Virus record (IMG/VR): IMGVR_UViG_3300029288_007054 | Span: 26,446 to 90,445 of that record | From: a virus | Lineage: Duplodnaviria > Caudoviricetes | Strand: one strand, 5' to 3' | Length of the DNA: 64,000 nucleotides | In this document: positions 9,345 through 63,411 of the stretch, piece after piece | Numbering within the stretch: position 1 is the first letter of the stretch | How the letters are laid out: each line of letters starts with the position of its first letter | The notes under the pieces: model-generated | Told to the model about the DNA's origin: nothing | The model's database searches: none | What the model saw: the letters and a program-made list of their open reading frames with translations, nothing else | Made by a program: the position numbers and the translations under genes

Positions 9345-10229
9345 TTTAAGTTTGCCCCATCTTCTTAAATTGTGGTCATCTCTAATGCCATTTTTGATTA
9401 AACATCTACTAACTGATGTTTGTCCACAACTTAATTTCTTAGCAATATCAATCTGTTTAAAACCTTTTTTATGCAGAGCCAAAATATCCCGACGCATTTT
9501 AGCCCATTTCTCTTTATTTTCTTGAACTCTATTTGGTTCAAGTTTACGCAACCTAAATACAACAGATGCACTATTATATCCAAGTTTTTTAGCTATTTGA
9601 ACGGAATTAAGTTTTTTCTTTCTTAATTTGATAATCTTCTTTATATCTAATTTTTGAACACCATTATAGTTAGCAACCTTAAAATCAATTTTATCCTTCA
9701 GCTTCTTAAATTTCTCCACGTCTATTTGTTCCGTAATGTGACAATTTTTACACAAAACGTCACATTTCTTAATTTCATCAAGAAGCTTTTGAGGTATTTT
9801 CAGAAAAACCCTTTTAGAATGATAAGATCTATATATATTTAATTGTTTATCCTTTCTATCTCTATGATGAAACTCTAAACTAACAGCACTTTTGCCCTTA
9901 TACCCACATCTACTACAACTATCCTGACCCTTTATTTTTAGCAACATTTCTTTATTGGGATTGCTTATAGGATAATGCTCTTCCATATGACAGTTTGCAC
10001 ATAAAAGAATACATTTTTTAACTTCTTTCAGTGCTACATCCCAGTGTTTATTAATCATTGAGTTAATTATGTCTTCTTTATCTTTCGTATGATGAAATGC
10101 CAAGACAAAGACATTATCATTTCCACACTTTTCGCATTTGCCTCCAAGCAAGTTTGTAGCCTTTATCTTCTTCGCCCATCTTCTAATAAAACTATCTTTT
10201 CTATCTTGGGCGTTAGACCTTTTCTTCAC
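9327..10229 (-). CDS. tandem-HNH homing endonuclease-like protein with C-terminal HTH repeats
   Basis: Two CxxC...FHH...C.LLC.NCH modules; IAKKL/SQ.SV HTH-like repeats. Confidence 0.85.
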   Translation of the reverse strand: MKKRSNAQDRKDSFIRRWAKKIKATNLLGGKCEKCGNDNVFVLAFHHTKDKEDIINSMINKHWDVALKEVKKCILLCANCHMEEHYPISNPNKEMLLKIKGQDSCSRCGYKGKSAVSLEFHHRDRKDKQLNIYRSYHSKRVFLKIPQKLLDEIKKCDVLCKNCHITEQIDVEKFKKLKDKIDFKVANYNGVQKLDIKKIIKLRKKKLNSVQIAKKLGYNSASVVFRLRKLEPNRVQENKEKWAKMRRDILALHKKGFKQIDIAKKLSCGQTSVSRCLIKNGIRDDHNLRRWGKLKLRSSN

Positions 10230-10390
10230 TTTACTACCTCCCCTAAAATACCCCTTAAAAGGTCTTCTATGTGTTCGGGTAGGGTTTGGTCTAGCTCTTC
10301 CTTTATAATCAATTGTGCGTCAAGGTGATGCATTCTTAAGTTTTCTATCATGGCTTTAGCTTCCTGCGTTATATTGACTTCTACTAACAT
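10226..10390 (-). CDS. 54-aa leader ORF translationally coupled to the HNH gene (MLVEVNITQEAK...)
   Basis: Manual translation; GGGAG SD; GTGA overlap with the HNH start. Confidence 0.65.
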   Translation of the reverse strand: MLVEVNITQEAKAMIENLRMHHLDAQLIIKEELDQTLPEHIEDLLRGILGEVVK

Positions 10391-10545
10391 GGCGGTTCAC
10401 TCCCTAGAAAAAGCAGACCCCTTAGCATTATTACTATCTGATGAACCGCCAAGCCCGACAGGTAGTTACTAAAGGGTCTACTTATTATTCTATTTTAATT
10501 TACTAATACTAACAGACTTTGGCGATTCATCTGTATATATTATAC
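10388..10545 (-). promoter_or_regulatory. structured cis-regulatory leader (long hairpin plus alternative pseudoknots) with TGTATAAT promoter
   Basis: Stem 10412-10425/10469-10482; loop segment 10441-10452 complementary to both 10389-10400 and 10519-10530; -10 at 10539-10544. Confidence 0.7.
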
Positions 10546-10557
10546 AAGAAAAATCAC

Positions 10558-11301
10558 CTAAAATCCTTTAATTATTTTAATTAAATCTGTTACCATTATC
10601 GAGATTTTAGTCTGTTGTTCTGATGCTGGTAATTCCTCTACTGCATAGGCAAGTTGAGTTAATCGCTCCAGCAACATATCCCTGTAAGTCCTTGCCATAT
10701 CAGCTAAGGCATTCTCTGTAGTTATTGACCCATCAGGATTGATGCAAATCTTTTTATTTGGGGCACCCAGTATATCTTCAAGTTCCGCAATGGTTACTTG
10801 ATTTCTAGCTGACTTCTCCACCTTTGGCTGTTGGGGTTGCCTTAAAACCCATTCTGAAAAATCCTCACAAGGTAAATCAAAATCGCAATCATCTTCTGTT
10901 TCTCCATCTTTAATTCTTGCGCAACTCTCGCAACTTCTCTCTTTTGGCTGTCGGGGTTGCCAGTATTGGCATGGTGAATGTATGTGGTCAGTTGCAGGAA
11001 TACAACCATTATGATTCTTTCCGCAACTCTCGCAACTTCTCTCCGCCTTTGGCATTGCAGGGGTGAACTTGGTGCAGCAACAAAATCCAGTAGGTTCTCG
11101 ACATTCTTGTTTACGAAAGTGATTGCCTTCTGTATGTCCACACTCGCACACTTCACTTTCTGCGGAGGGGGCGAGTACCCACAACAACGCCTGTTTTCTA
11201 ACCTCAAGGAAAAGTCTTACTGCATCTGGATTCTTATGTGAATCGCCAAACAGTTCTTCAATCTCTTTTAACTCTGCCATTATCTCATTCTCTGCCTTCA
11301 T
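10558..11301 (-). CDS. Cys-rich hypothetical protein with duplicated ERSCESC module
   Basis: 22-nt direct repeat at 10920-10941 and 11022-11043; many CxxC/CxC motifs. Confidence 0.65.
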   Translation of the reverse strand: MKAENEIMAELKEIEELFGDSHKNPDAVRLFLEVRKQALLWVLAPSAESEVCECGHTEGNHFRKQECREPTGFCCCTKFTPAMPKAERSCESCGKNHNGCIPATDHIHSPCQYWQPRQPKERSCESCARIKDGETEDDCDFDLPCEDFSEWVLRQPQQPKVEKSARNQVTIAELEDILGAPNKKICINPDGSITTENALADMARTYRDMLLERLTQLAYAVEELPASEQQTKISIMVTDLIKIIKGF

Positions 11302-11335
11302 TTTGTTCTCCTACATTTAGCCGTCTTCCTATCAC

Positions 11336-61044: not shown

Positions 61045-61408
61045 TGGTGGAGATGCGGAAGAGTCGAACTTCCGGTCTTCAAAGTAATAACTTCAATCTT
61101 CTACATGTTTAGTCAGCACTTTCTTTTGCCCCGACAGGCCTCACCAAGATTTTTTACAAGGGCACCATCGTATCTTGTTAACCCTATAGCAACTAATCAG
61201 GAGCAGTTGCTAACTCCGTTCCTAGTAGTAATTAGTCGTACTCATCCCCGCCACTAGTATCCAGAGATTTTCCTATCGCCACTATTAGGCAGCGAGAGCT
61301 AGGGACTTTTCAGCACCTATATTTTGGAATGCTTTTATACTGGCCAACATTACCATTCCAGTACATGCCGCTTGAGCCATTTTTCTCTGAATCGAACCAC
61401 ACATCCCC
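61045..61408 (-). ncRNA. ssrA: transfer-messenger RNA (tmRNA), 364 nt, tag (A)AEKSLALAA
   Basis: 5' GGGGATG pairs with 3' CATCTCC (G3:U70), then A-CCA; T-arm GGAAG-TTCGACT-CTTCC; ATAGGT-GCT resume context; tag ORF 61285-61314 ending GCC-TAA-TAG. Confidence 0.95.
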
Positions 61409-62594: not shown

Positions 62595-62670
62595 TGGAGG
62601 CTCTGACGGGAGTTGAACCCGTAACAGTCTGATCTAGAGTCAAACGCTCTACCAATTGAGCTACAGAGCC
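62595..62670 (-). tRNA. amber suppressor tRNA (anticodon CUA), 76 nt, encoded CCA
   Basis: GGCTCTG/CAGAGCC acceptor, GCTC/GAGC D-stem with GG, TTTGA-CTCTAGA-TCAGA anticodon arm (CTA at 62635-62637), ACGGG-TTCAACT-CCCGT T-arm, U73. Confidence 0.93.
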
Positions 62671-62724: not shown

Positions 62725-63156
62725 TTACTTATTTACTGCCGAACCTCTAAACGTATGAAAGTATCTTAATGGCCTGAATTTCCTGTCGCCTATATAAAAT
62801 GCCCATTTATGATATGGCTTTCCGCAAATTAACAATGTCCAAGCCCCTTCCTTGGGAATCTCTAAGTAATGCCTCTGTAGGGCTCTAGAATGCCATATAG
62901 AAGGCGCTGAAACCTCAAACCTGCCATTAGGGGTCACATTCGCATATTTGCCCTTTAAAACGATGGATATGAATGAGCACGAATGGTCATGAAAGAACCT
63001 TGTGTCATCAGACCTTATCCAATGATGAATTCTGATTGAATAGTTAAAAAAGATAAACATCCACCTATAAAGGTAGGGGTCATTCTTATCTCCCATCGCT
63101 TCTTTCCAACGAATCTGAAACGGTCTAAATTTTCTATAAGGTTTCATTTTTTTCAT
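62725..63156 (-). CDS. cupin-like phage protein
   Basis: PYLYRW, IHHWIRSDD..FHDH...F.S.VLKG.Y, HYLE. Confidence 0.65.
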   Translation of the reverse strand: MKKMKPYRKFRPFQIRWKEAMGDKNDPYLYRWMFIFFNYSIRIHHWIRSDDTRFFHDHSCSFISIVLKGKYANVTPNGRFEVSAPSIWHSRALQRHYLEIPKEGAWTLLICGKPYHKWAFYIGDRKFRPLRYFHTFRGSAVNK

Positions 63157-63165
63157 CCTTTAAAA

Positions 63166-63323
63166 TGGTCAACGTAGGGGGTAACGATCCGCCCTCATTC
63201 GCAATCCGGTTGTACATTCCATCATGCCGACCGCAAACTAACTTACTTGCCTAGGCCATTCCTTTAGTTTGCATGTCTAACGCATTATGTTAAATAATGC
63301 CGCTCTCCTTGAGCTATACGTTG
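63166..63323 (-). ncRNA. 158-nt tRNA-like RNA with 88-nt structured insertion in the variable region
   Basis: CAACGTA/TACGTTG acceptor plus A-CCA; GCTC-AAGGA-GAGC D-arm; GCATTAT-TTAAC-ATAATGC hairpin; GGCGG-ATCGTTA-CCCCC T-arm. Confidence 0.8.
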
Positions 63324-63335
63324 ATATTTAATTTT

Positions 63336-63411
63336 TGGTCAGGGCTTGCGGAGTCGAACCACCATCTCTCTACGTGTTTTGTAAAGTGCTCTCCCATTGA
63401 GCTACGCCCCG
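63336..63411 (-). tRNA. 76-nt tRNA-Pro-like RNA with non-canonical anticodon arm (pseudo/decoy tRNA)
   Basis: 5' CGGGGCGTAGC, 3' CCCTG-A-CCA, normal D-arm and TTCGACT loop; 6-bp stem with AAAACAC loop lacking U33. Confidence 0.75.

Follow-up and report, generated by a model that had tools for sequence, protein, structure and literature searches.

What does a gene encode that has the acceptor stem, D arm, T arm and CCA end of a tRNA and, in addition, a large structured insertion between its anticodon-position hairpin and its T arm: a tRNA to be freed of its insert, a decaying relic, a processing signal for a neighboring gene, or an RNA with a function of its own? Such a gene, 158 nt long, lies near the end of the 64,000-nt stretch of phage DNA analysed here (hereafter the window), which is the terminal 64 kb of a 90-kb IMG/VR virus record estimated to be ~48% complete and which carries a large-phage replication set (DnaE, topoisomerase, NAD ligase, a RecJ-like protein and RecA). 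The final 3 kb of the window form an RNA district in which all genes are on the minus strand: (i) a 76-nt tRNA-like gene called by ARAGORN (63336-63411), referred to below as the partner; (ii) the 158-nt tRNA-like RNA gene, 12 nt downstream of the partner (63166-63323; RNA position p is 63324 minus the window coordinate); (iii) an ORF of 143 aa (62725-63156), whose ribosome-binding site begins 4 nt past the CCA of the RNA; (iv) an amber-suppressor tRNA(CUA) (62595-62670, 69.6 bits); and (v) a tmRNA (61045-61408, 84 bits with RF00023), which is the sole Rfam tmRNA match in the window. No ORF of at least 40 aa spans the 158-nt element; a spurious plus-strand frame clips its first 27 nt. The same pair of tmRNA and suppressor tRNA is present in the related contig L008, whose tmRNA encodes the tag AEKPLALAA.

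Conservation of the 158-nt RNA in five phage lineages

Rfam 15 gave no match on 63166-63323 at the gathering score or at E values up to 10 (RF00005, YrlA, Y RNA and introns included), and ARAGORN at its default settings called nothing there, in line with the novelty that an initial annotation of this DNA had suspected. A blastn comparison with 50,697 cultured-phage records revealed no homolog of the 158-nt RNA or of the partner gene, and we found in the open-access literature no description of this RNA family, of a two-hairpin variable region or of the link to a cupin gene described below.

Homologs were reached by synteny: close homologs of the downstream 143-aa protein led to the JGI contig L008 and to the Logan contig L019, and homologs of the RidA gene located behind the RNA in L019 led to L109/L110 and L111/L112. 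The same RNA is present in these four other phage lineages. Conserved-block scans of IMG/VR, JGI metagenomes and GTDB genomes returned the L008 contig as the sole true match (the metagenome pattern demanded GGTCGG and was blind to the L019 type), the remaining matches being chance occurrences in GC-rich coding DNA. The flanking 156-aa gene has no homologs in IMG/VR, the relatives of DnaE led to one distant locus lacking the 158-nt RNA, and the RNA is absent from some further contigs with cupin homologs.

Model R1, a covariance model derived from the L019 and window copies, scored the window copy at 190.7 bits and three further lineages at 90-125 bits (E values of 1e-22 to 1e-33). With a model built from all copies (R2), the window copy scored 175.5 bits and the four other lineages 136-169 bits, the rest of 575 kb of related phage DNA staying at or below 37.5 bits. 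In alignment A7, which was fitted to the model's own structure and leans towards it, and over only five lineages, 97.4% of the pair cells are standard for the 40 proposed pairs, compared to 34-42% for slid partners, and 19 of the 40 pairs change on both sides: six in the acceptor stem, four in the anticodon-position stem, five and two in the two arms of the insert (H1 and H2, respectively) and two in the T stem. Double-sided changes are found in every helix except the invariant D stem. In 500 shuffles, the real values for pairing, for double-sided changes and for covariation were never reached; 8 of the 500 equalled the count of further pair types. The covariance search recommended by the initial annotation has thus returned homologs with compensatory changes, the insert included, and the covariation indicates that the 158-nt element is a genuine RNA gene that a few uncultured giant phages have conserved, with its structure under selection.

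These data bear on the view that the element is functionless, i.e. a decaying tRNA pseudogene or a tRNA gene broken by a small mobile insertion. A T loop that is degenerate in three lineages and an aberrant anticodon loop could be read as signs of decay, but the RNA is conserved in five lineages whose neighboring cupins are only 55-84% identical, compensatory changes affect every helix but one and the insert is the most conserved part of the molecule. Nor does any repeat or duplication account for the insert: a tandem duplication, which had been considered as its origin, was rejected, the only direct repeat being the 5' part shared by the two tRNA-like genes. Altogether, a functionless relic is barely credible.

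Architecture of the RNA

The minimum-free-energy fold of the window copy (-47.4 kcal/mol; z = -2.3 relative to shuffles, which is modest when taken alone) recovers the arms described here, and each homolog, folded separately, adopts the same six-helix layout. The perfect 7-bp acceptor stem with C1:G72, A73 and CCA and the D arm with its 5-nt loop, as initially annotated, were confirmed in the minus-strand sequence. The 5' strand of the acceptor stem (RNA positions 1-7, 63317-63323) begins with an invariant C1, and double-sided changes affect six of the seven pairs; pair 1:72, by contrast, is always C:G, in five of five lineages, and pair 3:70 of the window copy is A3:U70. The 3' strand (positions 148-154) is followed by A73 and the encoded CCA (63166-63176 altogether); A73 is present in five of five lineages and CCA is encoded in four, L109 having CUU. 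The D arm (63302-63314) consists of a 4-bp stem, 100% paired and nearly invariant, and a 5-nt loop containing GG, the loop length being 5-8 nt over the five lineages. In the anticodon-position hairpin (63282-63300), five conserved pairs, four of which change on both sides, close a 9-nt loop; two further A-U pairs, giving the 7-bp stem and 5-nt loop first reported, can form in the window copy alone. Finally, the T arm (63177-63194), which does lie next to the acceptor stem, has five pairs (two with changes on both sides), a bulged C in its 5' strand that recurs as a T-stem bulge in four of the five lineages, and a 7-nt loop, AUCGUUA, rather than the 4-nt ATCG loop assigned to it originally.

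The sequence between the anticodon-position hairpin and the T arm, given as 88 nt in the initial annotation, is 87-88 nt long, depending on the position assigned to the first T-stem base. According to the homolog folds and the covariation, this insert is made up of two conserved hairpins, H1 and H2, that take the place of the variable region. H1 (63229-63277) comprises 13 pairs, one bulged A and a 22-nt loop; five of its pairs change on both sides and 94.9% of its cells are paired. It includes the 9-bp helix with a palindrome in its loop already recognized in the single sequence, which the covariation supports and which the homologs extend at its base by 3 bp (GAC/GUC). The five-lineage alignment places in its loop a self-complementary 8-mer with the core CCUAGG (63249-63256). 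For H2 (63201-63227), the pairing GGTCGG/CCGGATT proposed earlier gives way to a two-part hairpin (GCA/UGC, then NGG/CCN, with a 9-nt loop) that both the homolog folds and the covariation favor: in the window copy, an outer GCA/UGC helix, a 3x3 purine-rich internal loop and an inner UGG/CCG helix carry the 9-nt apical loop AAUGUACAA (63210-63218; consensus A-N-K-GUACA-M). The middle pair of the outer helix is C:G or U:A, and the first pair of the inner helix A:U, C:G, U:A or U:G. In the homologs, a 4-nt linker precedes H1, a single G separates H1 from H2 and a conserved joiner of 6-7 nt leads to the T arm, the H1 loop ranging from 10 to 22 nt. The window copy and the four other lineages all display the six-helix layout, a CCWWGG motif in the H1 loop, a GUACA motif in the H2 loop and the conserved junctions. 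A tRNA-scaffolded RNA with a large structured insertion, as originally described, is therefore borne out by sequence, fold and covariation.

The distribution of variation over this architecture is uneven. Acceptor pairs 2-7, the anticodon-position stem, the length of the D loop and the sequence of the T loop are free to vary, whereas C1:G72, A73, the linker, the base of H1, the core of its loop, the H1-H2 joiner, the H2 apical loop and the joiner before the T arm are fixed; sequence conservation is higher in the insert and its junctions than in the tRNA stems. An identity element would be expected to behave as C1:G72 and A73 do, staying constant in a stem that otherwise varies. The T loop has a canonical sequence in L112 and L109 and a degenerate one in L019; the GG of the D loop and the UC of the T loop, which are partners in the tRNA elbow, are kept in four lineages and lost together in L019, which fits a real L-shape in most members.

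Neighboring genes and the wider class of tRNA-like genes

In all five lineages, a second tRNA-like gene precedes the 158-nt RNA family by 12-25 nt. It is 76-78 nt long in four of them and 137 nt long in L112. The window's partner has C1:G72, A73, CCA, canonical D and T loops and a 6-bp anticodon stem with the loop AAAACAC, devoid of U33, and its Rfam tRNA score of 28.8 bits is just below the 29-bit threshold. The corresponding loop is AAGACAC in L008, AAUGUACAC in L019 and GUAC-centred in L109. On the other side, the 3' end of the RNA is separated by 4-20 nt from the ribosome-binding site of the next gene in the five lineages, with no terminator between them. This next gene varies by lineage (a cupin, a RidA or an unrelated 92-aa ORF). 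In three lineages RidA separates the RNA from the cupin, and the link between RNA and cupin persists down to 55% protein identity. The 143-aa protein of the window has no Pfam match; the same cupin is also encoded on a contig of 148 kb. Its AlphaFold model (pLDDT 88.8) retrieved cupins such as TM1459 and DddK with Foldseek, and in its family a His, an Asp and a second His are invariant, as is typical of a metal site; the protein is confidently modelled as a small metal cupin. Note that, upstream of the tRNA-like pair of L019, a gene on the plus strand (L019:23-328) matches the peptidyl-tRNA hydrolase PTH2 (24.7 bits) only with an in-frame TAG read through, which fits the use of the neighboring suppressor tRNA.

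A profile of the 143-aa protein retrieved 76 giant-phage loci in IMG/VR (L033-L108). In at least 42 of these, a count obtained as the manual union of several scans, a tRNA-like gene that starts with C and ends with G-A-C(C/A/U)A is found on the same strand within ~1 kb upstream, directly before the cupin gene or before one intervening small gene, often RidA; the cupin is often followed by an amber-suppressor tRNA(CUA). A script searching for acceptor stem and T arm in these loci gave 105 matches on the gene strand and 10 on the opposite strand, and 29 of the 148 distinct tRNAs called by ARAGORN in them start with C, many of these being odd ones. The tRNA-like genes range in length from 74 to 231 nt, and their extra sequence is located in the D loop (L047), in the anticodon-loop region (L093, L094 and L104) or, as in the 158-nt RNA family, in the variable region. 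In the case of L047, a 173-nt tRNA-like gene (L047:1905-2077, plus strand) has a valine-type (UAC) anticodon arm and ~100 nt of structured RNA inside the D loop, so that insertion sites differ among class members. By these shared features the 158-nt RNA family is one subfamily of a wide C1:G72/A73 tRNA-like class of giant phages; the proposal of a new class of non-coding RNA, while consistent with the absence of an Rfam match, was thus too strong.

The class also includes insert-free sister genes, which occupy the same slot and have C1:G72, A73 and CCA. Their anticodon-position loops are 4-12 nt long, most of them with UAC, AAC or GUAC: UACA, GUAC, UUAC and GCAA among the 4-nt loops, the others being of 5 nt or 8-12 nt. 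As judged from these loops, the sister genes are non-decoding. The H2 loop of the 158-nt RNA resembles sister loops, e.g. that of L105 and those of the partner genes of L019 and L109.

L037 has three tandem tRNA-like genes before its cupin gene (L037:2106-2330, plus strand), two with a 7-bp stem and a GCAA tetraloop replacing the anticodon loop and the third with a 5-nt loop. Oversized members are found at L095:2334-2477, L098:2337-2477, L104:2268-2498 and L042:1403-1606; several of the oversized members have in common a hairpin with the palindrome UAGCUA in a 9-nt loop, on differing stems (e.g. L095 versus L098), and others share a hairpin around UUGCAA. In L002 (IMGVR_UViG_3300014208_000024), RidA and the cupin are preceded by 550 nt of non-coding sequence (L002:3009-3560, plus strand) with two oversized tRNA-like genes (189 and 148 nt), a tRNA that has a 2-nt 'anticodon' and two miniature RNAs of ~50 nt that consist of acceptor stem and T arm and lack the D and anticodon arms. 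One of the oversized genes has an H1-like helix with the loop palindrome CAGCUG. Homology between this helix and H1 was considered and set aside, the covariance models not connecting the two RNAs. The L002 genome also encodes TROVE/Ro60 (83831-84688) and RtcB (10068-11324).

Among the three complete genomes of the wider class (G001-G003), none has a class Ia synthetase gene, one has the RtcB ligase and one has TROVE; none of these proteins can therefore be a general partner of the class. In G001, the TROVE gene is ~7 kb from the genome's own oversized tRNA-like genes, and YrlA RNAs (Rfam RF02553) contain a tRNA-like module, which together would fit a Y RNA-like, YrlA-type mimic working with Ro60/TROVE in RNA quality control. 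The 158-nt element, however, matches neither YrlA nor any Y RNA in Rfam, its ends form an acceptor stem with CCA and not a Ro-binding helix, and TROVE is absent from the two other complete genomes as well as from the 90-kb record of this phage (~48% complete). We regard a YrlA-type role as very improbable.

The tight spacing to the next gene raises the question of a cis element, in which the tRNA shape would serve as a cutting signal (tRNA punctuation) with no job in trans, either setting or stabilizing the 5' end of the downstream cupin or RidA mRNA or gating its ribosome-binding site. This would account for a 3' end located 4-20 nt before a ribosome-binding site and start codon in five of five lineages without an intervening terminator, and for the presence of C1:G72 tRNA-like genes of many sizes in the same slot before cupin homologs at no fewer than 42 of the 76 loci. 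It does not predict that the directly downstream gene should differ among lineages and include an unrelated 92-aa ORF; moreover, a cutting signal needs acceptor stem and T arm only, which leaves the near-invariant loops and junctions of the insert, as well as the fixed C1:G72 and A73, unexplained. A purely cis-acting role is, in our opinion, rather unlikely.

The same neighborhood could also point to an off-ribosome amino-acid carrier, i.e. an RNA that would be charged by a host synthetase, kept from decoding and made to deliver its amino acid to the neighboring cupin and RidA enzymes or to have it modified by them, Pth2 and the suppressor tRNA belonging to one translation-related district with it. 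The intact acceptor end with its invariant 1:72 pair and discriminator, a cupin fold with metal-site His, Asp and His residues, a cupin link that survives at 55% protein identity, RidA between RNA and cupin in three lineages and Pth2 upstream in L019 are all compatible with such a role. To our knowledge, however, no cupin or RidA enzyme uses aminoacyl-tRNA; the neighborhood could simply be a tRNA array with interspersed small genes, and one lineage has no encoded CCA. A carrier function appears improbable.

The anticodon-position loop and the fate of the insert

If the RNA were to decode, either as it stands or after removal of the insert, then its anticodon loop should be conserved in length and context. 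The anticodon-position loop is 7, 8, 9, 9 and 11 nt long in the five lineages, and only AAC followed by a purine and a pyrimidine is conserved, on the 3' side of the loop. The base before this AAC is U in the window copy only and A or G in the other lineages; there is neither a U-turn context nor a fixed length. Such a variable loop makes normal decoding unlikely, and the UAA or UUA (ochre) anticodon assigned to the single sequence does not survive the comparison, since AAC and the two following bases alone are kept. Measured against a tRNA, the element has the acceptor stem, discriminator, CCA, D arm and T arm and lacks both a conserved anticodon and the 7-nt loop with U33 that would present it.

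An interrupted tRNA gene, the insert of which would be removed to give a working tRNA (for instance valine AAC), deserves consideration here, all the more because ARAGORN in intron mode calls exactly 63166-63323 as Leu(UAG) with a 63-nt intron, with a score of 99.7, just below its default level. The AAC triplet is conserved, and oversized tRNA genes of huge phages have been reported as intron-bearing (bioRxiv 10.1101/356790; PMC8346664). The ARAGORN solution was nevertheless rejected, as it would splice within H1 and the anticodon-position stem, both of which covary, and UAG is not conserved. More generally, (i) the loop is still of 7-11 nt, hence non-canonical, once the insert is taken out, and the U before AAC is peculiar to the window copy; (ii) the insert lies after the anticodon-position stem and, at 87 nt, is far below the size of the group I introns of bacterial tRNAs, which interrupt the anticodon loop, have a P3-P9 core and usually exceed 200 nt, and it gives no Rfam ribozyme or intron match at E up to 10; (iii) RtcB is absent from two of the three complete genomes of the wider class; and (iv) the insert-free sisters are themselves devoid of usable anticodon loops. 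An interrupted tRNA, which the initial annotation had put forward as a short-intron tRNA, is accordingly quite unlikely.

Two other readings were not retained. A tmRNA-like mini reading frame with a stop at its third codon in H1 fails in L109, the changes at these positions being structural covariation. A proline anticodon (NGG) displayed by the H1 loop is not matched in the insert-free sisters, which have the same acceptor features and lack GG loops.

A putative non-decoding tRNA mimic

What the RNA keeps is a tRNA-like frame, a fixed end of the acceptor stem and two extra arms. The explanation that we favor, tentatively and at somewhat less than an even chance, is that it mimics a tRNA without decoding, is stable and acts in trans by means of its extra arms, possibly as a dimer. 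The RNA would be co-transcribed with the upstream partner gene and the downstream protein gene and cut out by the tRNA-processing enzymes of the host (RNase P at C1, 3' trimming and CCA repair); an A/U-rich leader spacer upstream, the encoded CCA and, in four of the five lineages, a U just before C1 (position -1) are consistent with this maturation. The tRNA frame would provide maturation, stability and perhaps aminoacylation. Charging is possible, with indirect signs in the invariant C1:G72 and A73, in the ..AC loops and in the GG that ends the H1 palindrome. The conserved extra arms and junctions would form the working surface, the H1 loops of two molecules pairing into a kissing-loop dimer. 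The H2 and anticodon-position loops, which show ..AC motifs like the loops of the insert-free sisters, would probably bind a factor, of the host or of the phage, whose normal target is the anticodon loop of a tRNA, such as a valine-type aminoacyl-tRNA synthetase, a tRNA-sensing leader RNA or an anticodon-loop nuclease, and the RNA would titrate or divert this factor.

The possible dimer deserves comment. The core of the H1 loop is CCUAGG in three lineages and CCAUGG in two, and its flanks are G..C in the window copy, U..A in two lineages and U..U in two; two position pairs of the loop thus change and yet stay self-complementary. Since the bases of the palindrome cannot pair with each other inside a single hairpin loop, contact between the loops of two molecules is the most economical interpretation, and from these few data we infer that H1 loops may dimerise. 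The idea depends on two compensatory position pairs, and the U..U flanks of two lineages run against it. A crude class-wide test for palindromes in hairpin loops gave 23 of 26 against 20.4 expected, a value equalled in 24 of 200 shuffles and hence not significant.

Other elements of the mimic hypothesis also call for caution. The 'valine-type' reading of the loops relies on a motif of 2-3 nt in loops of odd sizes, and any long loop holds many triplets; under known identity rules, bacterial ProRS would be a better match than ValRS for C1:G72 with A73. Likewise, the tight position before a ribosome-binding site suits a cis role as well as a trans one. We give only a small chance to the most specific version of the hypothesis, that of a family of dimerising, chargeable, non-decoding mimics, always present as paired tRNA-like genes by a metal cupin (often with RidA), that would hijack a tRNA-sensing step or carry an amino acid. 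If it holds, then either use, i.e. a hijacked host step (synthetase, T-box-type leader or anticodon nuclease) or an amino-acid carrier for phage enzymes, would show DNA viruses putting the tRNA shape to a new purpose.

Giant phages are known for their tRNAs, tmRNA and translation factors, and annotation usually passes over their oversized tRNA-like genes or calls them intron-bearing. Extra arms that are the most conserved part of the molecule, together with an anticodon loop unable to work normally, suggest that at least some of these oversized genes are mimics with their own function. The link with the cupin gene and the recurrent pairing with a second, defective tRNA-like gene provide handles for experiments and for annotating an unlabelled class of RNAs in viral metagenomes.

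Comparison with known systems

The tmRNA of the same district is, like the 158-nt RNA, a phage-encoded molecule that combines a tRNA-like acceptor/T domain with a large structured insertion. It has neither D stem nor anticodon arm, and it has G3:U70 and a tag reading frame, whereas the 158-nt RNA has full D and anticodon-position arms, A3:U70 and no conserved reading frame, which sets it apart from both RF00023 and the permuted form RF04321.

A viral tRNA mimic is known from turnip yellow mosaic virus, where the 3' end of the genomic RNA is a valylatable tRNA-like structure with a CCA end and a ..AC anticodon-type loop that does not serve decoding. The 158-nt RNA resembles it in these respects (a putative viral mimic, a CCA end and a ..AC-containing loop), but the plant virus element is a genome end with a pseudoknotted acceptor stem and no extra arms, whereas the phage RNA is the product of a separate small gene of a DNA phage and has a plain 7-bp acceptor stem. 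For H1, the parallels are the dimerisation hairpin DIS of HIV-1 and the intermolecular loops of the phi29 pRNA, which form kissing-loop contacts. As in these, a self-complementary sequence of 6-8 nt is exposed in a loop and its complementarity is kept through changes; H1 has no homology with either, its loop is larger (10-22 nt) and its dimerisation is only inferred.

Among tRNAs proper, class II tRNAs and the allo-tRNAs with long arms, some of which are encoded by phages and have a bulged T stem (Mukai et al. 2017, PMC5389517), share with the 158-nt RNA a cloverleaf, an extra arm between the anticodon and T stems and a 7/5 stack of acceptor and T stems. Their extra arm is a single hairpin (~10-25 nt in class II tRNAs, up to ~25 nt at most), in contrast to the 87-88 nt, two hairpins and conserved junctions found here, and they decode with a 7-nt anticodon loop that the 158-nt RNA family does not keep. 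Also similar in appearance are the oversized tRNAs of Lak and other huge phages, described with 'enigmatic introns' (Devoto et al., bioRxiv 10.1101/356790; Crisci et al., PMC8346664): like the 158-nt RNA, they are overlong and missed by finders in bacterial mode, and their inserted sequence is highly conserved. The Lak genes are described as typable tRNAs with introns in the anticodon loop, found with tRNAscan in eukaryote mode, whereas the 158-nt RNA is set apart from these descriptions by an insert that is located in the variable region and supported by covariation, and by a remainder that is not typable.
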